Of a stretch of DNA of 64,000 nucleotides, positions 5,590 to 47,422 are shown in pieces. A program made the position numbers and the translations under genes. The DNA is from Candidatus Nanoarchaeia archaeon (GTDB lineage Archaea > Nanobdellota > Nanobdellia > Pacearchaeales > GW2011-AR1): positions 18,717 to 82,716 of the forward strand of contig JBAQGX010000001.1 of NCBI GenBank assembly GCA_049288015.1, read 5' to 3'. The stretch's first letter is position 1. Every line of letters begins with the position of its first letter. The notes under the pieces were generated by a model that saw only the letters and a program-made list of their open reading frames with translations, ran no database searches and was not told the origin of the DNA.

Positions 5590-6486
5590 CTATTCAACTT
5601 TTTCTATACTTTTAAGGTCTTTTATAGCATCAATTAAATTGTCTAATTTTTTTAGAGGTTCGCCCAAAATTAGTATTTTATATGGTAGTTTCAGTTCTTG
5701 AGATTTTTTGTAAGCGTTGATTATATCTGATTCTGCTATTTTTTTCTTATTGTACGCAATGATAAGATATTCTTCTTTTTCTTTGACTTTGAATATTATT
5801 TTATTTATTCCTATTTCTTCAATACCAATTATTTCTATATGCTTTTGTGATAAAGACTCTTTAATCTTGTTGAAAAATTTGTTTCGATTGTCTTTACTTT
5901 TTTTTGCTTGTAGTTTTGGTTTTTTAGCAGATTTTTTAATTTCATTTTTTTGATGCCTCTTGTCTATTACTTCCTTCGGGATTTCTATTATTACTTCTTC
6001 AACCAACTCTTTTGGTTCAGGGCTCAAATTTTCAACTAAGATGGTTTGCTTTGGTTCTTCTTCAACTGGTGAATAATCTGATTCTGCAATAGTGAAATAT
6101 CTCCATAATATTTCATTTTCTATTTTGAATGGTATGGCAAAATCTTTTATGGTTCTTAGAGCAACTCTTATTGCTGGTTCTAATCTTCTGTCAACAAGAA
6201 ATTTATTATCTTTTAAAAGGAGATAAGCTTCTTTTTCTTTATTCTTCAAGTATTGAGAAAAATTCTCTAGCATAGGCTCTTGTCCTGGGATAAGATATAA
6301 CGGAGAACTTCCAACATGCATATTTGAGATTTTTAATCTTTTATCCGCAATTAATTCAGAAAGAAATGCAGAGGCAAATAAGATACTTAATCCGGTCTCA
6401 TGCGCAATGAAAACAGGGAGATTTGGCCCAGTTGATCTTATCATAGACAATATTTTTTCTTTTATTGCTACTGCATCTTGGCCCAT
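5590..6486 (-). CDS. Hypothetical protein, possible N-terminal winged-helix domain
   Basis: 298 aa; N-terminal 60 aa resemble wH DNA-binding folds (TrmB/ScpB/TFE-like pattern) but no diagnostic motif; C-terminal half K/E-rich. Confidence 0.45.
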   Translation of the reverse strand: MGQDAVAIKEKILSMIRSTGPNLPVFIAHETGLSILFASAFLSELIADKRLKISNMHVGSSPLYLIPGQEPMLENFSQYLKNKEKEAYLLLKDNKFLVDRRLEPAIRVALRTIKDFAIPFKIENEILWRYFTIAESDYSPVEEEPKQTILVENLSPEPKELVEEVIIEIPKEVIDKRHQKNEIKKSAKKPKLQAKKSKDNRNKFFNKIKESLSQKHIEIIGIEEIGINKIIFKVKEKEEYLIIAYNKKKIAESDIINAYKKSQELKLPYKILILGEPLKKLDNLIDAIKDLKSIEKVE

Positions 6487-27366: not shown

Positions 27367-28737
27367 TTATTTTAATTTTTTAACCAGTATTTCTCGGACT
27401 ATTTGATTATCTGCTCTTCCTTTGGATTCTTTCATTACCTGTCCGATTAAGAAGTTCAGGGCAGAGTTTTCTCCTTTTTTGTAATCTTCTATTGCTTTCT
27501 TGTTTTCCTTCATAACTTTTTCAATTAGACTTTCAATTTCTTTGATATTTGTTATCTTTTCATTTCCTTTAAACTCTTTTTCTGGTGAAAACGATTTAGG
27601 GATAAATTTATTGAGCATTTTTTTGGCTTGTTCTTCCGTAATTCTTCCTTTCTTCAACATATCTAAAAGTTCAATGAAATGTTCTGGTTTGATTTCAATG
27701 TTTGGAGAATCCAAAGAGGTTTTGTTATAATTCAAAACTCTTAATAACTCTACAGTTACCCAAGGGACGGCTAGTTTAGGTTCAACTTTATTTATTACTT
27801 TTTCAAAGAACTCAGCTATTTCAAGTTTTTTTGAAAGAATCTGAGCGTATTTTTCGGGTATATTATATTTCTTTATTAACTTCTGTAACTTTTCTTGAGG
27901 TGTTTCAGGGAGTGAGCTCTTTATTTTTTCTATTCTTGAATCATCAAGTATAATCATTGGTAAGTCTGGATCTGAGATGAATTTGTAATCTTGTTCTGCT
28001 TCTTTTTCACGCATTTTTTTTGTAATTCCTTTTGCTTCGTCAAACATTCTTGTTTCTTTTGTTTTTGGAACACCTTCTTTTTTTTGACGTGATTCTTCAT
28101 ACTCTATTGCAGATTTTATATTCTTAATACTATTGACATTTTTTATTTCAACTCTCTCGCCTTTTAGTTCTGGGAGTGAAACGTTTACGTCTGCTTTTAA
28201 TCCTGAATTTTTATCTATGGATTTTATGTAACCAAGAGTTATGATCAATTGTTTCAACCAATCGGATACTTCTTCTGATGATTTGAAATCAGGTTCTGTA
28301 ACTATCTCAATAAGAGGGCTTCCGGATTTATTATAATCAATTTCCCCTGTTTTTGGATTCCAAGCGGCGGGATCTTCTTCAAGGTGAACCTCTCTTATCC
28401 TGATTCCAAGAAATTTTCCATTAACTCCAACGGGTGAAGCGTGAGCTCCTGAAATTGTATTTTGATATCCCTTTGGTAAATCTGGCCAATCATAATGCTT
28501 CCTTTGCCAAACAAGTTCCTTATTTATTTTACATTCTAAAATTAATGCTGTTTGAATTGTCCTATTTATTGCTTCTTTATTAGGAAGCATGGGCTTTGAT
28601 CCAGGCTGAGCAGTGCAGATTGGGCAAATGTGAGTATTCGGTTTTGTAAGCTTTGCTCCATGAATAGATTTACATGTACAAAATAATTTTTCTTTTGTAT
28701 CTAAATAACCATGAATTTCCAATCCTATCATGACCAT
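27367..28737 (-). CDS. gatB: Asp-tRNA(Asn)/Glu-tRNA(Gln) amidotransferase subunit B (GatB)
   Basis: 456 aa; IGLEIHGYLDTKEKLFCTC N-terminus (GatB-type), C-terminal YqeY-like helical domain. Confidence 0.85.
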   Translation of the reverse strand: MVMIGLEIHGYLDTKEKLFCTCKSIHGAKLTKPNTHICPICTAQPGSKPMLPNKEAINRTIQTALILECKINKELVWQRKHYDWPDLPKGYQNTISGAHASPVGVNGKFLGIRIREVHLEEDPAAWNPKTGEIDYNKSGSPLIEIVTEPDFKSSEEVSDWLKQLIITLGYIKSIDKNSGLKADVNVSLPELKGERVEIKNVNSIKNIKSAIEYEESRQKKEGVPKTKETRMFDEAKGITKKMREKEAEQDYKFISDPDLPMIILDDSRIEKIKSSLPETPQEKLQKLIKKYNIPEKYAQILSKKLEIAEFFEKVINKVEPKLAVPWVTVELLRVLNYNKTSLDSPNIEIKPEHFIELLDMLKKGRITEEQAKKMLNKFIPKSFSPEKEFKGNEKITNIKEIESLIEKVMKENKKAIEDYKKGENSALNFLIGQVMKESKGRADNQIVREILVKKLK

Positions 28738-28808: not shown

Positions 28809-30107
28809 ATGGAATCGAAAGCACAACCCGGAGATTATGTTGAAATTTCTTTAATGAAAAGTTCCTATGAAGGAACTATTCTTCAGACTCCTGAATCGGA
28901 GAAAGGAATTATTCTCTTAAAGCTAAAGTCAGGTTACAATTTTGGTATAAATCGTAAAGATATTGTTGAAATAAAAGTTCTTAAGAAATTTTCTCCTGAA
29001 GAAAAGAAAGAAGTTGAAATAAAGAAGGATAAGGAAAAGCCTAATGTTGCATTAATAATTACCGGAGGAACAATTGCTTCAAGACTAGATCCTCGAACAG
29101 GGGGTGTTGATCCTTTGATAAAACCAGCAGATTTCTTTAAATTTTATCCTGAAATTTTTGAAAAAGTTAATGTTCTAAAAGTTGAAATTCCTTTTACTAA
29201 AGCTTCAGAAGATATTGATTATAAAGATTGGCAAAAACTTGCGAAGATTGCTGGAGAACTTCTTAATGATGGAAGTATTCAAGGCATTATAATTGCTCAT
29301 GGAACTGATTTTTTACACTATACTTCTTCTGCACTATCTTTTTTTCTAAGGGATTTAAATAAACCTGTTGTGATGACTTATTCTCAAAGAAGTAGTGATA
29401 GGGCTAGCAGTGATGCAAGATTGAATTTACAGTGTGCAGCTATCGCAGCGATTTCCGACATCGCTGAGGTGATGATTGTTGGTCATGGTACAACAAATGA
29501 TGATTTTTGCTATGCAATGCCTGGGTCAAAGACCAGGAAAATGCATAGCTCAAGAAGGGACGCTTTTAAGGCAGTGAATGCAGAACCCTATGCAAAGATT
29601 TTTCCAGATAAAATAAACAAAATGTCTGATTATAATCTAAGGAATAAGAACAAGGTTAAAGTTGACTCCAAATTTGAGGAAAGAGTTGCTTTGGTTAAGG
29701 TCTGTCCAGGGCAGGATCCGGATATTTTAGACTATTACTTAAAAAACAAGTATAAAGGAATTGTCTTAGAAATGAGTGGATTAGGACATGTTCCGACATA
29801 TAGATCAAGGAAATCTTGGATAAGAAAACTTAAGGAAATTCAGGCAAAGGGGCTTATAATATGTGCTGCTGCTCAGACTATCTATGGAAGACTTGATCCT
29901 TATGTTTACTCGAACGGAAGAGAAATCCTTGAAACAGGAGTTATTTATCTTGAAGATATGCTTTCTGAAACTGCTCTGGTTAAGCTGGGCTGGGTTTTAG
30001 GGCATGATGAATGGGCTAAAAATAAGGATAAAATCAGGGAAAAAATGCTTGAAAATTTTGCCCATGAAATCAATAAAAGACTTGAATTTGAAGCTTTTGA
30101 AGGATGA
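28809..30107 (+). CDS. gatD: Glu-tRNA(Gln) amidotransferase subunit D (GatD)
   Basis: 432 aa; N-terminal GatD-specific domain then L-asparaginase-like domain (LIITGGTIASRLD, HGTD). Confidence 0.85.
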   Translation: MESKAQPGDYVEISLMKSSYEGTILQTPESEKGIILLKLKSGYNFGINRKDIVEIKVLKKFSPEEKKEVEIKKDKEKPNVALIITGGTIASRLDPRTGGVDPLIKPADFFKFYPEIFEKVNVLKVEIPFTKASEDIDYKDWQKLAKIAGELLNDGSIQGIIIAHGTDFLHYTSSALSFFLRDLNKPVVMTYSQRSSDRASSDARLNLQCAAIAAISDIAEVMIVGHGTTNDDFCYAMPGSKTRKMHSSRRDAFKAVNAEPYAKIFPDKINKMSDYNLRNKNKVKVDSKFEERVALVKVCPGQDPDILDYYLKNKYKGIVLEMSGLGHVPTYRSRKSWIRKLKEIQAKGLIICAAAQTIYGRLDPYVYSNGREILETGVIYLEDMLSETALVKLGWVLGHDEWAKNKDKIREKMLENFAHEINKRLEFEAFEG

Positions 30108-30169: not shown

Positions 30170-30574
30170 ATGCCTAATCCAAGATATTTAACGGAAAATG
30201 GACAACCTCAGGTTGAACTCTTGAAAAAGCTTAGCCTAGCCAAGAGAACATTCTATGAGAATCTACCTAGCTTTTGTCAACAAAATTATCTTAATCTAGA
30301 AGAATTAAAATCCATTGATGGTGTTTTTTTAATTGGTTCACATGCTACAAAAAATGAGTGGCATAATGATTCTAGCGATCTAGACCTTAAGTTGATTAAT
30401 TCCAGAGCTGTACCAGAAAATCTTTGGAGATATAAAAGAATAATTCTAGATCCTATTTTATGTGATCAGAGTAAAGAAAAGAGGTATTGGATAGATTTGT
30501 ATTTCGCACTAAAAAATTATCAGGTTACTTCCCCAAAATGGGATTTAACTAAATATTGGAATGAAGACATTTAA
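30170..30574 (+). CDS. Minimal nucleotidyltransferase (Pol-beta superfamily, MNT-like)
   Basis: 134 aa; FLIGSHATKNEWHNDSSDLDL = GS-x(9-13)-D-x-D NTase signature; overlaps downstream ORF by 14 nt. Confidence 0.6.
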   Translation: MPNPRYLTENGQPQVELLKKLSLAKRTFYENLPSFCQQNYLNLEELKSIDGVFLIGSHATKNEWHNDSSDLDLKLINSRAVPENLWRYKRIILDPILCDQSKEKRYWIDLYFALKNYQVTSPKWDLTKYWNEDI

Positions 30575-31385
30575 TCAATCAAAAGTTTTAATTGAAAGCT
30601 CTAGAAAGGGCTCTAATCCAGGGGGATTTTGTACATATACAGATGAAAGAAGAACATTTCCAGGTTATTTTAAATATTGTACTGGGGCTAGACTTCCTCA
30701 TTCTTCTTATCTAAAGCCGGAACATCAACCAATTTATGAAGCAGTAACTTTTGAACTAGCTAGGAGATTAGGCTTGAAGACCCCTAATTTTTTTGTTTTA
30801 TTAAACAACAAGGGAAATCTGATTTTTGATGAGTCAAATAAGTCTCTTTTAAATGGCCATTCCGGAAGATTTTGTTATTTTTTTTCTGAAAAAATTGATG
30901 AACCTCATAATGTTCAAGATTTAGATAAAATAGGAAATAAACTTGTTGGAGATGAAAAAGTTTATTTAGATAGCCTGGGAATTTCAGATGTAATAGGAAA
31001 AAGGCAGAACTATATGGTTCTTCCAAAAAATGGAGAATTTGAAGTTTCTTACATTGATCTTGGTTGTAGTTTTGTATATGCAACTGATGGAATTATTCGT
31101 TTACCTCACAGTTTAGAAAATTATCTAAGAAATGGTTCTCAAAAAAAAGATAAATGCAATCTTAAAAATAAGAGTATTATTGGTGCAGATAATAATTCAC
31201 TAGTTAATTTGGATGAACTTGTTTATCATTTTAATGGCTTAACTGTACCCTGCCTTAATCCCTTTTCAAGGGTTCCAATATCCAATCTAATTTCAAGCGA
31301 TGAAATAAACGAGATAGATCAATATCTTGTTCATGGACTATGCCAGAGTTTACATGAATATAAGGAAGAAGGATTGCTGGTTTAG
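30561..31385 (+). CDS. Hypothetical 274-aa protein co-transcribed with the MNT-like gene (possible kinase/ATP-grasp-like fold; unassigned)
   Basis: No confident motif; GISDVIGKRQNYMVLPKNGEFEVSYIDLG weakly recalls HipA/ATP-grasp nucleotide-binding segments; translational coupling with the upstream NTase. Confidence 0.5.
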   Translation: MKTFNQSKVLIESSRKGSNPGGFCTYTDERRTFPGYFKYCTGARLPHSSYLKPEHQPIYEAVTFELARRLGLKTPNFFVLLNNKGNLIFDESNKSLLNGHSGRFCYFFSEKIDEPHNVQDLDKIGNKLVGDEKVYLDSLGISDVIGKRQNYMVLPKNGEFEVSYIDLGCSFVYATDGIIRLPHSLENYLRNGSQKKDKCNLKNKSIIGADNNSLVNLDELVYHFNGLTVPCLNPFSRVPISNLISSDEINEIDQYLVHGLCQSLHEYKEEGLLV

Positions 31386-31423: not shown

Positions 31424-32881
31424 ATGGATAGTGAAAAGGTAAATTATTCTGAATTGGGTCTTAAATGTGGGCTGGAAATTCACCAACAGCTAAACACTAA
31501 AAAACTATTTTGCGATTGTCCTTCTCTTTTAAGGAGCGAAGATCCAGATTTCTTTATTAGAAGAAAATTACATGCTGTTGCCGGAGAAAGTGGGGAAGTT
31601 GATGTAGCTGCGAAGTATCAGTCTTCTTTAAATAAAAATTTTGTTTATCAAGGTTATGAAGATACTACTTGTCTTGTTGAACTAGATGAATCTCCCCCTA
31701 GAGAAATTAATAAGGACGCTCTTAAAATTGCAGTTCAAGTTTCTTTATTATTAAATTGTAAAATAATTCCGATTACCCAAATAATGAGAAAAACAGTGAT
31801 TGATGGTAGTAACACTTCCGGATTTCAGAGGACGGTTTTAATCGCAGGAGACGGATATGTTGACACCGCTTCCGGTAGAATTGGAATTCAATCTATTTGC
31901 CTAGAAGAAGATTCTGCAAGGATAATATCGGAGAAGGACAATGAAGTTACTTACAGGCTTGATAGGCTAGGTATTCCTTTAATTGAGATTGCAACATTTC
32001 CGGATATTTCTAATCCTGAAGCTGCAAGAGAAGTTGCTCTTTATATTGGAAATGTTTTGAGAAGCTGTGATGTTAAAAGAGGTATAGGTACTATAAGGCA
32101 GGATGTTAATATGTCTCTTAGAAAATTAGGGGGAACGAGGATAGAAATTAAAGGTGTTCAAGAACCTTCTTTGATTGTAAAAACTATTAATTCTGAGATT
32201 GAAAGAGAGGTTAAAGAAAATAAAAAAGTTGAGCCTCAGGTTAGAAAAGCATTGCCTGATGGATCTACTGAATTTTTGAGACCTATGCCAGGAGCTTCTA
32301 GGATGTACCCTGAAACAGATTTACCCCTATTAAGAATAAGAAAGGAGTTTATAGATGAAGTAAAAAGAAGTCTTCCTAAACTGTCTTCTGAAATTGCAGG
32401 TGAGTTGAAGAAATATGGTTTGCATGAGGAACTAATAAAATTAATATTAAAAGGAAATAAAGTTGAAGAATTTAATGAACTTGTTCTTGTAAATAAGAAC
32501 CCTGAACTAGTTGCAAAAGTTCTAGTTCTTTACCCTAAAGAATTGGCTTCTAAAAATAATTTAAGTGAAGATAAAGTGAGTAAGATTTTGAATAAAGATA
32601 TTCTAGTAGAGATTTTGGAATCTGTTGCGAAAAAGAAGATTAATGAAAGGCAAGTAAAAGATGTTCTGGAGAGAATTGTAACTGGAATAGAATTTTCTGA
32701 GGCTGTCAAGTTTGAAGAACATGATTCTGATAAACTTGAAGAAAAGATTATTAATTTAATCAGAGAAAAACCAGGATTGTCTGGGAATGCTTATATGGGT
32801 TTGTTGATGAAAGAGTTCAAAAGAAGAATTGATGCTAAAACTCTGATGGAAATTATTTCAAAACATCTTAAAAAAGATTGA
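31424..32881 (+). CDS. gatE: Glu-tRNA(Gln) amidotransferase subunit E (GatE), short form
   Basis: 485 aa; LGLKCGLEIHQQLNTKKLFCDCPS (GatE-type GLEIHQQL), about 130 aa shorter than typical GatE. Confidence 0.8.
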   Translation: MDSEKVNYSELGLKCGLEIHQQLNTKKLFCDCPSLLRSEDPDFFIRRKLHAVAGESGEVDVAAKYQSSLNKNFVYQGYEDTTCLVELDESPPREINKDALKIAVQVSLLLNCKIIPITQIMRKTVIDGSNTSGFQRTVLIAGDGYVDTASGRIGIQSICLEEDSARIISEKDNEVTYRLDRLGIPLIEIATFPDISNPEAAREVALYIGNVLRSCDVKRGIGTIRQDVNMSLRKLGGTRIEIKGVQEPSLIVKTINSEIEREVKENKKVEPQVRKALPDGSTEFLRPMPGASRMYPETDLPLLRIRKEFIDEVKRSLPKLSSEIAGELKKYGLHEELIKLILKGNKVEEFNELVLVNKNPELVAKVLVLYPKELASKNNLSEDKVSKILNKDILVEILESVAKKKINERQVKDVLERIVTGIEFSEAVKFEEHDSDKLEEKIINLIREKPGLSGNAYMGLLMKEFKRRIDAKTLMEIISKHLKKD

Positions 32882-32933: not shown

Positions 32934-34232
32934 ATGGATTTGGACAAGTTAAATAAGGAAATTGTTTCTATCTCAGATATTTTAGGTAAAAATGTAAGAG
33001 AAGTTTCGACTGTTGGCTGGGTTAATAGTACACGTGAATTGGGGAAGATAAAATTTCTTTTATTAAAAGATCAGACAGGGATTATTCAGATCACTGCTGT
33101 GAAAGGAAAAACAGACGATAAGATTTTTGATATGATTGATAAGATTGCTAGAGAATCTGTTATTTATATTAAAGGAGAAGCTAAGGATTCAAAACAGGCA
33201 CCTGGTGGACGAGAAATTATTCCTGAGAAAATAGAAGTTCTTAACTCTGCTGAAACTCTTCCAATAGATGTTTCTGAGTTTTCCAAGACTGATTTGCCAA
33301 AGAGACTGGATAACAGGTTCTTAGATTTGCACAGAGAAAAGATTCAGGCAATATTTAAGATACAAAGTGAAATTGCATTTAGGTTTAGAGAATTTTTTCA
33401 TAATAAAGGATTTTTTGAGGTTCAGTTACCCTCTATAATTTCTGCTGCAAGTGAAGGTGGAACAGAATTGTTTAAAGTTGAGTATTTTGAAAGGAAGGCC
33501 TATCTTGCGCAAAGCCCCCAATTATACAAACAGATGCTTGCATGTTCTCCTATGGCTAAAGTTTTTACAATAACTCCTGTTTGGAGGGCTGAAAAACACA
33601 ATACCATAAGACATCTTAATGAATCGAGACAGATGGATATTGAAGTGGCTTTTTCTGGGCAAAAAGAGGTGATGAAATATTTAGAAGATGTGGTTAAATA
33701 TGTCATAGAAAAGCTTCTTGAAAATTGTAAGAAGGAAATTCAAGTTTTGGAATTGAAGTTAAAAATTCCTAAAATAAAGTATCTAAGCTATGATGATACT
33801 GTAAAGCTTTTGAAAATGAAGGACGGTGAAGATCTTTCTCCAGATAACGAGAGAGATTTGGATAAAAATTTTCCAGATACAATTGTTTTTGTCCATTCTT
33901 GGCCCGCAAGTATAAAACCTTTTTACATTATGCCGAAGGATGGGAAGGTTGATTCAAAGTTGAGTGAAGGTTTTGATGCAATTTATAGGGGGCTGGAAAT
34001 TTCTTCAGGAGGGCAGAGAATTCATTTACCTGATTTATTGATAAAAAGGATAAAAGCAAAGGGTATGAATCCTAAAGATTTTTGGGGATATATTGACAGC
34101 TTTAGGTATGGAGCTCCTCCTCATGCTGGATGGAGTATTGGTTTAGAAAGGATTACGATGCTTATTACGGAACAGAAAAATATTAGAGAAGCTGTTTTAT
34201 TCCCACGAGATAGAGATAGATTGACTCCGTAA
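32934..34232 (+). CDS. aspS: Aspartyl-tRNA synthetase (archaeal type, likely non-discriminating)
   Basis: 432 aa; N-terminal OB anticodon-binding domain, class II core, C-terminal FPRDRDRLTP. Confidence 0.9.
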   Translation: MDLDKLNKEIVSISDILGKNVREVSTVGWVNSTRELGKIKFLLLKDQTGIIQITAVKGKTDDKIFDMIDKIARESVIYIKGEAKDSKQAPGGREIIPEKIEVLNSAETLPIDVSEFSKTDLPKRLDNRFLDLHREKIQAIFKIQSEIAFRFREFFHNKGFFEVQLPSIISAASEGGTELFKVEYFERKAYLAQSPQLYKQMLACSPMAKVFTITPVWRAEKHNTIRHLNESRQMDIEVAFSGQKEVMKYLEDVVKYVIEKLLENCKKEIQVLELKLKIPKIKYLSYDDTVKLLKMKDGEDLSPDNERDLDKNFPDTIVFVHSWPASIKPFYIMPKDGKVDSKLSEGFDAIYRGLEISSGGQRIHLPDLLIKRIKAKGMNPKDFWGYIDSFRYGAPPHAGWSIGLERITMLITEQKNIREAVLFPRDRDRLTP

Positions 34233-34310
34233 ATATTTATTGTTTTTTCATCAAAGAATAAATTTAAAAAGCCGAATAAATAGTAGCATTATCCTTAAAG
34301 GAGGATTAAA

Positions 34311-34448
34311 ATGAACAAAAACAAATATAAGGGCGACGAAGAAGAAGACGAGGATGAAGAAGAAAAGAAAGATGAAAATGAAGAAGATACAGATGAAGAC
34401 GAGGATGAAGAGGAAGAGTCCAGCGATGATGGGGATGACGGCTGGTAA
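34311..34448 (+). CDS. 45-aa hyper-acidic microprotein (MNKNKYKGDEEEDEDEEEKKDENEEDTDEDEDEEEESSDDGDDGW)
   Basis: Not in ORF track (short); preceded by AAAGGAGGATTAAA-ATG (strong SD, 7-nt spacing); about 70% D/E, C-terminal DDGW; locally elevated GC. Confidence 0.4.
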   Translation: MNKNKYKGDEEEDEDEEEKKDENEEDTDEDEDEEEESSDDGDDGW

Positions 34449-34551
34449 ATTCTTTTTTCATTAAAGTTTTTATTTGGAATTATATTTTTACGGTGGGGTT
34501 TTATTTTTTATTACAATTAATTTTAAATAGGAGTTATTTTTTCTGACATCT

Positions 34552-34971
34552 ATGGAGACTATGGAAGTAAAATTGAGACATTGGCGTGATCTCACAGATG
34601 AGGAAGTTAATGCAATTCATAATCCGAGAGATATCCCTATTATTTCTATAATTGGAGGTCTTTCCCATGATGAAAGGAAAGTGATTTATGACCAAATTAA
34701 GATAAGAAGAAAGTATTTCAAAGATTTTATGGATAGACAAGGTGTTTGGTTAGATGATCATAAATGGTATATTGGAGAGGATTTGGAAAGAAATCATAGG
34801 TGTGAAGATCCAAATGATATACTTACTAATGAAGTAATCGCAGGAGATGGCGAGAATGTAAGGTTTAGAATTTATTATGCAGTAAAATGTACCCAAAGAA
34901 TAGAAGGTCCTCCTTACTCTCCTGAATTGTCAGATTTCTTGAATGAAGTTTATGAAACAGTAGAGTATTAG
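34552..34971 (+). CDS. Hypothetical protein (139 aa), no recognisable domain
   Basis: Stop-free ORF in AT-rich context; Trp/His/Asp-rich; ends ...YETVEY; directly follows the acidic microprotein. Confidence 0.5.
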   Translation: METMEVKLRHWRDLTDEEVNAIHNPRDIPIISIIGGLSHDERKVIYDQIKIRRKYFKDFMDRQGVWLDDHKWYIGEDLERNHRCEDPNDILTNEVIAGDGENVRFRIYYAVKCTQRIEGPPYSPELSDFLNEVYETVEY

Positions 34972-35012
34972 TTTTTAATTAATCTTATAAACTTATTATT
35001 TTTAGGATAAAT

Positions 35013-35276
35013 ATGGGAGATTTTCTTTACCATAAACTTTCGGATGATGATATAGAAAGAGTGAAAAAAGAAGCGAAGAATATGCTTGAATCTTTTTCTG
35101 AGAAAATGTCTAAGTTAAAAGTCGCAGAAGAAGAGCCCTCAATAAAAAGAGATAGTTTTGAAAGAGAAGAAAAGAATGGCGAAGAGTGTGATGAATCTTT
35201 TAAGAAAATAATGTTTGAAAATGCACCAAATAAATCTAGAGATTTTATAATTGCGGAAACAAAGAGATGGGAATGA
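35013..35276 (+). CDS. gatC: Asp/Glu-tRNA amidotransferase subunit C (GatC)
   Basis: 87 aa; GatC-like pattern (DDDIERVKKEA helix, EEPS, FENAPNKSRDFIIAETK C-terminus); overlaps gatA start by 10 nt. Confidence 0.6.
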   Translation: MGDFLYHKLSDDDIERVKKEAKNMLESFSEKMSKLKVAEEEPSIKRDSFEREEKNGEECDESFKKIMFENAPNKSRDFIIAETKRWE

Positions 35277-36595
35277 CTACTGTTGAAAAACTTAAGACAT
35301 ATCTTGAAGAGATAAATAAGAATGATAAGCAAGGAAAGAAGATAAATGCATTTTTGCACTTGCAAGATGAGAAAGAACTTTTAAGAGAAGCTGGAGAAAT
35401 TGATAAAAAGATAAAATCTGGAAGAGCAGGAAAACTTGCTGGAAAAATTATTGCCGTAAAATCTAATATAAATGTTAAAGGATTGATTGCTTCATGTGCT
35501 TCTCATGTCCTTGAGGATTACAAGGCTTCCTATGACGCAACAGCCATAGGGAAAATCAAGAAAGAAGATGGATTAATAATTGGTATGACTAATATGGATG
35601 AATTTGCTTCTGGAAGCAGTGGAGAAACTTCTGCATTTGGTCCAATAAAAAATCCCGTAAATTTAGATTTAATCCCCGGAGGATCTTCTAGTGGTAGTGC
35701 TGCTTCTGTTGCAGCTGGTTTTTGTGATTTGGCTCTTGGAAGTGATACTGGAGGAAGCATAAGAAATCCTGCATCTCATTGTGGAGTTGTGGGAATAAAG
35801 CCAACTTATTCTTCTGTTTCAAGGTACGGACTTATTGATTTATCTATGAGTCTTGATCAGATTGGTACTTTTGCAAAGAATGTTTCAGATGCAGGTCTAT
35901 TGTTAAGTGTTATAAAAGGAAAAGATAATAGAGATTCAATTTCACAAGAGTCTAAGGAAATTGATTTAAATGAGATTGAAAAAACCAGTAATTTTACTAT
36001 TGGAATATTAAATTTTGAATTGAAAGATAAGAAAATACAAAATCTGATTTTAAGTAGAATAAAGGAAGCAGCAAAGAGATATAATTGGAAAACTGAAAAT
36101 ATAACAATAAAAGGCATTGATTTGGCTATTGAAACTTATTATCCTTTAGTTTATGTGGAATTTTTTTCAGGAACTAGAAAATTTGATGGAAGAAGATATG
36201 GAAGAAAAATTGAAGATGCTGCAGGAGAAGAAGTTTTAAGAAGGATTTTAGGAGGTAGTGAAATTTCAAGAGAAGAATATGGCGGGAGATATTATCATAG
36301 AGCTTTGAAAATAAAAAAGTTGATTGAGAAAGAATTTTCTGATGTTTTTAAAAAAGTGGACTGTATTATTTCTGCAACTGTTCCAAAGCTTCCTCACAAA
36401 ATCGGGACAAAAATCTCTGTTAGAGAAATGTATGAATATGATGCTTTAACTGCTCCTTCAAATTTAGCCGGAAACTGTGCTATTAGTCTTCCTGCAGGAA
36501 AAATTGACGGAGTTCCAGTAGGAATGCAAATAATGTGCGATAAATTTCAAGAACAAAAAATGCTTCAGATTGCAAGATTGTTTGAGAAGTTCTAA
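35267..36595 (+). CDS. gatA: Asp/Glu-tRNA amidotransferase subunit A (GatA, amidase family)
   Basis: 442 aa; amidase signature GGSSGGSAASVAAG, catalytic Ser-cisSer-Lys context. Confidence 0.9.
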   Translation: MGMTTVEKLKTYLEEINKNDKQGKKINAFLHLQDEKELLREAGEIDKKIKSGRAGKLAGKIIAVKSNINVKGLIASCASHVLEDYKASYDATAIGKIKKEDGLIIGMTNMDEFASGSSGETSAFGPIKNPVNLDLIPGGSSSGSAASVAAGFCDLALGSDTGGSIRNPASHCGVVGIKPTYSSVSRYGLIDLSMSLDQIGTFAKNVSDAGLLLSVIKGKDNRDSISQESKEIDLNEIEKTSNFTIGILNFELKDKKIQNLILSRIKEAAKRYNWKTENITIKGIDLAIETYYPLVYVEFFSGTRKFDGRRYGRKIEDAAGEEVLRRILGGSEISREEYGGRYYHRALKIKKLIEKEFSDVFKKVDCIISATVPKLPHKIGTKISVREMYEYDALTAPSNLAGNCAISLPAGKIDGVPVGMQIMCDKFQEQKMLQIARLFEKF

Positions 36596-42167: not shown

Positions 42168-42335
42168 TTATTTGATGTTTTTAGCTTGTTCTGCAGATAG
42201 AATCTTTGCCATATTTGTTCCACACACAGCGCAAGTTCCCCTTGCCATGAAAGTTCCCCTACTTGTCTTTTCTAACTTAACATTTTTCATTTCTCTTGAT
42301 TCTTTACATTTCATACATCTTCCTTCTAAGGCCAT
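42168..42335 (-). CDS. 55-aa zinc-ribbon microprotein (MALEGRCMKCKESREMKNVKLEKTSRGTFMARGTCAVCGTNMAKILSAEQAKNIK)
   Basis: Not in ORF track; CxxC-x24-CxxC; preceded by AGGAGGTTAAAAAAA-ATG strong SD (rc of 42339-42353); 3-nt gap to downstream gene. Confidence 0.5.
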   Translation of the reverse strand: MALEGRCMKCKESREMKNVKLEKTSRGTFMARGTCAVCGTNMAKILSAEQAKNIK

Positions 42336-42404
42336 TTTTTTTAACCTCCTTTAGTTTTATTATATTTTACTAGAAATTTTCTAGTTTTTTAAAGATTCTT
42401 GTTT

Positions 42405-47398: not shown

Positions 47399-47422
47399 TT
47401 AATACTTAGAAGGAGGTGAAAA

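Follow-up and report, generated by a model that had tools for sequence, protein, structure and literature searches.

The 64,000-nucleotide (nt) stretch of a Candidatus Nanoarchaeia (DPANN) genome analysed here, referred to as the window, carries two uncharacterised genes in the gap between aspS and gatC-gatA (34233-35012). One encodes a hyperacidic microprotein of 45 amino acids (aa), and the other encodes a helical protein of 139 aa, which together with its relatives is called p139. It is very probable that both are real, conserved genes, and sequence comparison suggests that they may be credible new accessory parts of a translation-fidelity pathway in DPANN archaea. They are embedded in a cluster of genes that make Asn-tRNA and Gln-tRNA by the indirect route; the order is gatB, gatD, gatE, aspS, 45-aa gene, 139-aa gene, gatC and gatA (Table 1; coordinates refer to the window unless another locus is named). 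An initial annotation of this DNA had placed the pair inside a tRNA transamidation cluster, and aspS, gatC, gatA, gatE, gatD and gatB were indeed confirmed around it. A literature search found no description of either gene.

The open reading frame (ORF) at 34311-34448 translates as MNKNKYKGDEEEDEDEEEKKDENEEDTDEDEDEEEESSDDGDDGW. The initial annotation had reported a 138-nt ORF ending in DDGW; both features were confirmed. Its extreme Asp and Glu content also holds, with the correction that these residues make up 28 of the 45 (62%) and not about 70%. The GC-rich codons that had been noted correspond to a GC content of 41% compared with 32% for the window, which comes mostly from the GAN codons, the excess of GAC and GAG being slight. 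The ORF was said to be absent from the ORF track; public gene callers did annotate it at this locus, which was recovered from several samples. AlphaFold, run with the single sequence, gave no secondary structure (predicted local distance difference test (pLDDT) score, 65; predicted template modelling (pTM) score, 0.14), and the microprotein is predicted to be an intrinsically disordered polyanion. Pfam scans of the acidic peptides of the window and of two other loci (L015 and L009) matched no family.

Related loci were reached in two ways, through members of the p139 family and through a graded series of GatA homologs. Orthologs of 45-49 codons were found in the same slot in five other species (L011, L015, L016, L018, and L022), and an analogous ORF was found in a sixth. 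The microprotein gene is thus a genuine conserved small gene, whereas the initial annotation had allowed that related genomes might lack it. In the five species, aspartyl-tRNA synthetase (AspRS) is 64-70% and GatA 71-82% identical to the window proteins. p139 is ~36-42% identical where tblastn detects a homolog; the homolog of L022 was recognised by the family profile only, and L016 has none. The start and stop codons align across the six species, and the length differences are all whole codons. When the window ORF was compared with that of L011 without gaps, 14, 12, and 31 differences were counted at codon positions 1, 2, and 3, respectively, and the sum over all 15 ortholog pairs was 181, 164, and 377. 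The identity between these two acidic peptides is low (14 of 45 residues). Nevertheless, the net charge stays between -19 and -23 in all six orthologs, with Asp and Glu freely exchanged. Asp or Glu occupies 50-62% of the codons, and Asn codons are retained near the N-terminus. The six orthologs also keep a basic MKNNKK-like N-terminus, a hydrophobic residue at around position 6-7, M, L or T at around 27-31, and a Ser-rich patch; their last residue is W, Y or I (DDGW, DYGY three times, EEEY, and SDSDI). Since the start, stop, length, leader, and position-3 bias are kept in six species, the frame is concluded to be under protein selection, which acts on composition, length, and a few anchor residues. 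The microprotein is among the few hyperacidic ORFs of less than 50 aa for which comparative genomics by itself demonstrates selection on the protein.

The 45 codons could be imagined as an untranslated, purine-rich non-coding RNA or as a spacer that is open by chance. A (GAN)n-like tract is poor in stops, and its openness is weak evidence for coding: 7% of mononucleotide shuffles of the ORF body were stop-free (2% with the ortholog of L011), and such a tract is open by construction in its antisense frames. In addition, Rfam matched the C/D-box RNA sR52 inside the ORF at 34347-34395 (21 bits vs a gathering score of 50, E=0.064). This match, the only one in the region, is far below the threshold and was judged to be a chance match to GA-rich sequence. 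A non-coding tract is difficult to reconcile with the aligned ATG and stop codons and the whole-codon indels, with the ~twofold excess of substitutions at position 3 over positions 1 and 2, and with an invariant Shine-Dalgarno (SD) sequence located 4-9 nt before the ATG across the orthologs. Frames +2 and +3 contain 1-3 and 7-11 stops, respectively, in every species, and the ATG of the antisense ORF of the window is not conserved in L011. It is therefore very unlikely that the ORF is untranslated.

The microprotein gene has predicted expression signals of its own. Its predicted archaeal promoter consists of an A-rich stretch and the TATA box TTTAAAAAG, and the promoter sequence AAAAAATTTAAAAAG is invariant in all six species. 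With at most one mismatch, the promoter 12-mer is also present ~29-35 nt (counted from the first TATA T) upstream of three other gene starts in the window and ~48 nt upstream of tRNA-Glu. By that spacing, the transcription start site of the microgene is predicted near 34291-34293, which would give a 5' untranslated region of ~20 nt with the SD. The 24-nt leader TAGTAGCATTATCCTTAAAGGAGG, which includes the SD AAAGGAGG, is unique in the window, and shuffles gave 0 chance matches. Its core TAGTAGCATTATCC is exact in the window, L015 (leader at 2145-2168), L016 (2135-2158), L018 (593-615), and L022 (2135-2158), and carries a 1-nt insertion in L011 (4737-4761); the L018 leader lacks one T further along the 24-mer. 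The leader is far better conserved than the ORF behind it, while the flanking proteins are 64-82% identical. The initial annotation was right about a strong SD and slightly wrong about its spacing, the gap between GGAGG and ATG being 6 nt, not 7 nt. Two tRNA-gene sites aside, each intergenic GGAGG of the window is followed by a start codon, for example at 47412 (158-aa gene), 49766 (211-aa gene), 37518 (ftsZ), and 42349 (55-aa ORF).

The leader can also form a small hairpin in which AUCCUU pairs with AGGAU and, if the transcript begins earlier, GCAUU pairs with AAUG. The hairpin encloses the SD, together with the AUG in some species; its folding energies range from -5.5 to -9.2 kcal/mol, with z-scores between -1.6 and -2.8. 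The invariant leader could be a site close to the promoter where a regulator binds the DNA or, alternatively, an RNA hairpin in which SD and AUG are concealed.

Oligo-T runs and a GTGGGG(T)n motif, present as GTGGGGTTTT in the window, were found behind the stop codon in all six species. Archaea terminate transcription at oligo-T, and the T-run region is a probable terminator of the microprotein mRNA; the GTGGGG(T)n motif may be part of the terminator or a regulatory site. A similar CGTGGTTTTTTG is located behind the p139 homolog in L009 (~5651-5662). A scan of the region for hairpin terminators found none of the bacterial type, and scanning for bacterial promoters and terminators is uninformative for an archaeon. 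Further downstream, AATTAATTTTAAATAG is conserved ahead of the 139-aa gene, and in 9 of 10 loci, some of them from genomes without the acidic ORF, the first T of its TATA box TTTAAATA is 29-30 nt upstream of the p139 ATG. This arrangement suggests that the 139-aa gene has its own promoter and a leaderless mRNA. The two genes look like separate transcription units, with the microprotein gene being monocistronic.

These signals bear on the idea that the acidic ORF is a leader peptide or upstream ORF, in which the supply of charged Asp- and Glu-tRNA sets the speed of translation and so controls transcription or translation of the 139-aa gene, gatC and gatA in an attenuation-like manner, the peptide itself being functionless. 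The ORF is indeed located downstream of aspS and directly upstream of the amidotransferase genes, 50-62% of its codons specify Asp or Glu, Asn codons occur near its N-terminus, oligo-T signals follow its stop codon directly, and the conserved hairpin is able to cover the SD and AUG. However, the free exchange of Asp and Glu codons conserves the charge and not a particular tRNA, and the length of 45-49 aa, the net charge, and the terminal aromatic or hydrophobic residue are conserved at the level of the peptide. Several strong T-runs precede the next gene, which has its own TATA box at leaderless spacing even in genomes without the acidic ORF, and no alternative terminator/antiterminator structure was found at the end of the ORF. 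The acidic ORF of L009 is downstream of p139, and the gene behind it is on the opposite strand. Moreover, a leader with 25-30 regulatory codons would be unlike known leader peptides; to our knowledge, neither trpL, hisL, pheL nor any other has so many. A leader peptide is thus an unlikely explanation of the ORF.

The 139-aa protein had been described as an orphan without a recognisable domain. It is 100% identical to a hypothetical protein of a metagenome-assembled genome of a 'Candidatus Nanoarchaeia archaeon', and an exhaustive HMMER search of 1.84 billion cluster representatives revealed 56 relatives at E<=1e-3, 24 of them at E<=1e-10, nearly all of 110-190 aa. Given these relatives and the strictly conserved position behind aspS, it is not an orphan. 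A word-index homology search had returned only the self-match, which was an artefact of the index. The absence of a recognisable domain was confirmed, as was the C-terminal YETVEY: neither Pfam nor NCBIfam gave a match above cut-off for the 139-aa protein, and no family member has an assignment. Nor is the ORF a fragment or pseudogene of a known gene, an outcome that the initial annotation had considered. In the family, W66 never varies and L14 and D27 hardly do, and closer members share the pattern W..LTEEEK.AI.D..D.PII.VI.GLS..ER..IY.SI and an R-F-R-x-Y-Y-A motif. AlphaFold predicted an all-helical protein of seven helices with high confidence (pLDDT 93.6, pTM 0.86). A fold search with this model found no PDB or viral match (best E in Foldseek against PDB, 2.8), and the best hits of a PDB profile search were unrelated proteins (E 0.29).

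Using the hidden Markov model of the family, p139 was found directly after an archaeal aspS in 10 of 10 independent loci (window, L007, L008, L009, L011, L012, L013, L015, L018, and L022). gatC and gatA, in some cases with a gene between them, come next in 8 of the 9 loci whose contig extends past p139, the exception being L009. The contig of L014 starts inside a p139 homolog and continues with gatC and gatA. p139 stays behind aspS down to 24% identity, while the gatD-gatE and gatC-gatA slots turn over. In L020 and L021, where aspS is arranged differently, no p139 family member was found at gatC-gatA. The p139 slot of L016 (2403-2732) holds an unrelated 109-aa ORF under the same conserved promoter, with no Pfam match and no remnant of p139.

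Several identities were considered for p139, and none was adopted. It is not the ~140-aa insertion domain apparently missing from the local GatE, since it is all-helical and has no GAD or GatE match. It is not a YqeY-like C-terminal tail of GatB/GatE either (hhalign probability 0.1% against the C-terminal 200 aa; no PF02637 or PF09424 match). When the p139 family was aligned by hhalign with a local GatC alignment (PF02686/NF000681), a probability of 24% was obtained over 26 columns, restricted to the N-terminal LSEEEK-type helix. A GatC paralog was not accepted, the true gatC being directly downstream. Among the hits of the representative search, P0032 (264 aa) is a tandem duplication of the p139 domain and looks like a protein of a higher-GC organism, which hints that the domain works as a dimer and that the family reaches beyond AT-rich Nanoarchaeia. 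The long multi-stretch matches P0031 and P0047 look like repeat or low-complexity artefacts and were set aside.

ATG-initiated ORFs of 25-90 aa with at least 45% Asp+Glu were collected from the window and ~110 kb of independent loci (~170 kb). Only the six orthologs and one ORF of L009 were recovered, and all of them are located within ~120 nt of the p139 slot. The 64-aa ORF of L009 lies directly downstream of a p139 homolog that is 24% identical to that of the window, at the place occupied by gatC in other genomes. A TTTAAAAAG box and an AAGGAG SD of its own precede this ORF, and T-run terminators follow it. aspS and gatE are present at this locus, and no gatCA follows; the next gene is on the opposite strand. 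The association in L009 is therefore with aspS and gatE rather than with gatCA. This ORF may be homologous to the 45-aa protein or convergent with it.

On balance, there is about an even chance that both genes are linked in function to aspS and transamidation. The indirect route to Asn-tRNA and Gln-tRNA is essential and carries a fidelity risk, because the mischarged Asp-tRNA(Asn) must be kept off the ribosome. The channelling of this intermediate in archaea is understood only in part, and we know of no study of it in reduced DPANN genomes. Because of its conserved neighbourhood, we read p139 as an accessory or adaptor subunit of the machinery (transamidosome) of non-discriminating AspRS (ND-AspRS) and amidotransferase. 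The microprotein would be a clade-specific addition to it, acting like DSS1/Sem1 or like the acidic tail of a single-stranded DNA-binding protein (SSB). Its polyanionic chain would occupy basic nucleic-acid-binding surfaces, for example the OB-fold domain with which AspRS binds the anticodon or the parts of GatE/GatB that bind tRNA, and the terminal aromatic residue would hold it in place. In this position it could compete with tRNA, or gate the binding and hand-off of tRNA. Such a role is preferred because AspRS has an OB-fold anticodon-binding domain and is mildly basic (pI 7.6-8.8). As a whole, the proposal that p139 is a transamidosome accessory and the microprotein its polyanionic, tRNA-mimic-like partner is tentative, and the particular mechanism of tRNA mimic plus adaptor is rather doubtful.

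Several observations weigh against this proposal. L016 retains the acidic ORF even though p139 has been replaced by the unrelated 109-aa ORF; since the acidic ORF is kept there without p139, the two are not obligately paired. Conversely, L007, L008, L012, and L013 keep p139 with no acidic ORF at the locus. The p139 proteins are themselves acidic (pI 4.9-5.4) and offer no obvious electrostatic partner to the microprotein, and the charge of AspRS does not differ between genomes with and without the microprotein. p139 shows no detectable likeness in sequence or fold to SepCysE, Hp0100, GatC, the GatB/GatE tails or any PDB entry. Finally, synteny in the clade is broad. It runs well past the cluster and takes in gatA, an MBL-fold gene, ftsZ, a nitroreductase gene, and a ThiI-like gene, so that adjacency alone is weaker evidence than it looks.

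Broad synteny also lends weight to the idea that the microprotein is a general-purpose polyanion placed beside aspS by historical accident, with p139 likewise in an unrelated role; a position conserved so far past the cluster need not mean a shared function. Such a polyanion could serve as an electrostatic chaperone or 'entropic bristle', could buffer histones, nucleoid proteins or cations, or could associate with the ribosome or the division machinery. Small hyperacidic disordered proteins of eukaryotes, such as DSS1 and prothymosin-alpha, have many partners. The gene appears to have its own promoter and terminator and hence not to be co-transcribed with its neighbours, and it outlives the replacement of p139 in L016. 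On the other hand, a differently placed hyperacidic ORF again adjoins a p139 homolog and aspS in the distant L009, no other hyperacidic small ORF was found in the ~170 kb scanned, and p139 remains behind aspS down to 24% identity while the surrounding slots change. We consider a general-purpose polyanion somewhat unlikely.

By analogy, both proteins can be likened to known kinds, p139 to transamidosome-type adaptors and the microprotein to acidic, disordered, mimic-like microproteins. For the transamidosome accessory role of p139, the best analogue is SepCysE, which bridges SepRS and SepCysS and binds tRNA (PMC5688128). Like p139, it is a small, lineage-restricted extra protein encoded with archaeal tRNA-dependent amino-acid synthesis. 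In contrast, SepCysE has an alpha/beta Toprim-like tRNA-binding C-terminal domain, whereas p139 is a single all-helical domain of acidic pI, and no similarity was detected between them. A precedent for non-canonical components of an Asn-transamidosome is Hp0100 (QueH), which is reported to stimulate GatCAB and to stabilise the tRNA-independent ND-AspRS/GatCAB Asn-transamidosome of H. pylori (cited in PMC8406222). Hp0100 belongs to an unrelated bacterial family and is enzyme-like, whereas p139 is a small helical domain; among 53 p139 family members, QueH (PF02677) gave one match at chance level (E=0.076). If SepCysE and Hp0100 are taken as a class of adaptors defined by function and not by homology, p139 shows its conserved co-encoding, for aspS-p139 in 10 of 10 loci and for gatC-gatA in 8 of 9.

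DSS1/Sem1 acts with BRCA2, the proteasome lid, and TREX-2. In the case of BRCA2, the helical domain and OB fold 1 are bound by DSS1 and thereby lose their DNA binding (PMC11329725). The microprotein resembles DSS1/Sem1 in being tiny, acidic, and predicted to be disordered, with anchors at ~6-7, ~27-31, and the C-terminus and a charge of -19 to -23, and the neighbouring AspRS carries an OB-fold anticodon-binding domain. It differs in being archaeal, shorter (45-49 aa), and basic at the N-terminus, and there is no sequence homology to DSS1/Sem1 (PF05160), the window, L015, and L009 peptides being without a Pfam match; the likeness is one of composition and architecture only. Acidic tails with an aromatic or hydrophobic end, such as those of bacterial SSB (DDDIPF), T7 gp2.5, and tubulin (EEY), dock on partner proteins or fold back onto their own OB fold. 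The acidic run of the microprotein likewise ends in W, Y or I, but it is a free-standing gene product and not part of a DNA-binding protein. The DNA mimics Ocr and ArdA are folded proteins whose carboxylates are arranged as in B-DNA. The microprotein shares their high negative charge density and the small size of some of them; in contrast to them, it is predicted to be disordered, and its gene belongs to a housekeeping cluster for translation rather than to a mobile or anti-restriction setting. Our best guess is that the microprotein is a disordered polyanionic mimic or binding partner.

Carrier and modifier proteins were also considered, as the initial annotation had suggested a ligase substrate. 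LysW has an N-terminal Zn-ribbon with CxxC pairs and a C-terminal EDWGE-like motif whose last residue is Glu, and an ATP-grasp ligase is encoded close to it. The six orthologs lack Cys altogether and end in W, Y or I, and the neighbourhood tables contain no ATP-grasp gene. Nor does the microprotein belong to the Pup, SAMP or ubiquitin-like modifiers, because DDGW, DYGY, EEEY, and SDSDI provide no C-terminal GG, GGQ or GGE. The LysW- or Pup-like reading thus found no support: Zn ribbon, terminal Glu or GGQ, and a nearby ligase gene are all missing.

Taken further, the proposal that p139 is a transamidosome accessory would give Nanoarchaeia a four- or five-component Asn-transamidosome, in which p139 bridges ND-AspRS and amidotransferase and the 45-aa polyanion is a tRNA mimic in one clade. 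This is an improbable scenario on present grounds; if it were true, the microprotein would be the first DSS1-like nucleic-acid mimic in archaeal translation. p139, which is conserved, confidently folded, unannotated, and fixed between aspS and gatC, is a concrete candidate for a missing component. The microprotein is useful for the annotation of small proteins, since such ORFs are usually dropped as low-complexity noise. If one of the other explanations holds, what remains is a well-supported annotation of two hypothetical genes, of modest interest.

Table 1. Positions of the two genes, their signals and neighbours in the window, and acidic peptides of related loci
Feature	Position	Strand	Remarks
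gatB	27367-28737	opposite	upstream end of the cluster
gatD	28809-30107		upstream of gatE, with two genes of unknown type between
gatE, short (485 aa)	31424..32881	+	upstream neighbour of aspS; NF003107 GatE, 505 bits vs cut-off 456, two stretches
aspS, archaeal non-discriminating aspartyl-tRNA synthetase	32934..34232	+	NF003483 aspartate--tRNA(Asn) ligase, 512 bits vs cut-off 353
Predicted promoter of the microprotein gene	34260..34271	+	A-rich stretch and TATA box TTTAAAAAG; inferred
24-nt leader	34281..34304	+	TAGTAGCATTATCCTTAAAGGAGG; includes Shine-Dalgarno AAAGGAGG at 34297-34304
Hyperacidic 45-aa microprotein gene	34311..34448	+	net charge -23; predicted disordered
Oligo-T runs after the microgene	34453..34509	+	34453-58, 34467-71, 34485-89, 34499-34502, 34504-09; probable terminator
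Conserved GTGGGGTTTT among the T-runs	34493-34502	+	GTGGGG(T)n motif
TATA box TTTAAATA of the 139-aa gene	34522..34529	+	30 nt before the ATG
139-aa helical protein, p139 family	34552..34971	+	ends in YETVEY
gatC (87 aa)	35013..35276	+	overlaps the gatA start; NF000681 E=7.5e-11, below curated cut-off; Pfam GatC match weak
gatA, amidase subunit	35267..36595	+	PF01425 Amidase E=2.7e-111; TIGR00132 479.5 bits vs cut-off 481.1
Acidic peptide of L011			MKNNKKLEEDEDQDKTDDEVTEDEEDMEDEEEEDSSSDESDDYGY
Acidic peptide of L015			MKNNKKFEDEDEDKDTSDEQEETDENEDMSDEEEDESSDEGAEADDYGY
Acidic peptide of L016			MKNNKKIEEDEAVSDDAEEETDENEDTSDDEVEEDTSDDSTEGDDYGY
Acidic peptide of L018			MKPYKNKYEEEDEDEDKDKDKDKDKEEEEDMDEDEEEEEEDSSFEEEY
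Acidic peptide of L022			MENKWKKRKDEDDEESLTSKDDAEDEEDLDEDEDEAEDSDSDSDI
64-aa hyperacidic ORF of L009	L009 5720-5914 (also L010 1187-1381)		58% Asp+Glu; MSEDEFEVPENESAEEVEENMEEDESLNEEPEEESEEEPEEDSEEEPEEKEENFSEDSEDSYSD

Among the neighbouring genes, the product of aspS contains the Pfam tRNA-synt_2 domain in addition to the OB-fold anticodon-binding domain, and gatC is conserved across the loci, L009 being the exception. A tRNA-Asn gene is located ~6 kb downstream. The window GatE, with 485 aa compared with ~630 positions in the model, apparently lacks an insertion domain of ~140 aa; GatE of the relatives is of similar length (483 aa in L007, 485 aa in L012, and 502 aa in L009). In L002, a copy of the window locus, gatE, aspS, and gatA are each split into two or three ORFs, and the acidic ORF and p139 are intact; the splits are most likely frameshift errors of assembly or sequencing and not biological.

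The content of the gatD-gatE slot varies, and this site looks like an insertion hotspot for a small two-gene cassette. In the window (30170-31385) it holds a 134-aa protein with a weak likeness to Pol-beta nucleotidyltransferases (PF18765, E=0.004, below cut-off) and an overlapping 274-aa protein of unknown type. The slot contains DUF1003 and Fic genes in L007 (1881-3177), and a 134-aa homolog (48% identical to that of the window) with a 301-aa ORF in L009 (696-2132). gatC and gatA overlap directly in the window, and relatives have gained an extra gene at this junction: a NUDIX gene in L015 (3115-3504), L016 (3106-3504), and L018 (1606-2010), a SnoaL_2 gene in L022 (3160-3504), and a gene for a 123-aa protein of unknown type in L007 (6694-7065). 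Elsewhere in the window, a 55-aa ORF at 42170-42337 on the minus strand is located behind a strong intergenic SD ACTAAAGGAGGTTAAAAAAAATG and is probably a genuine small gene.

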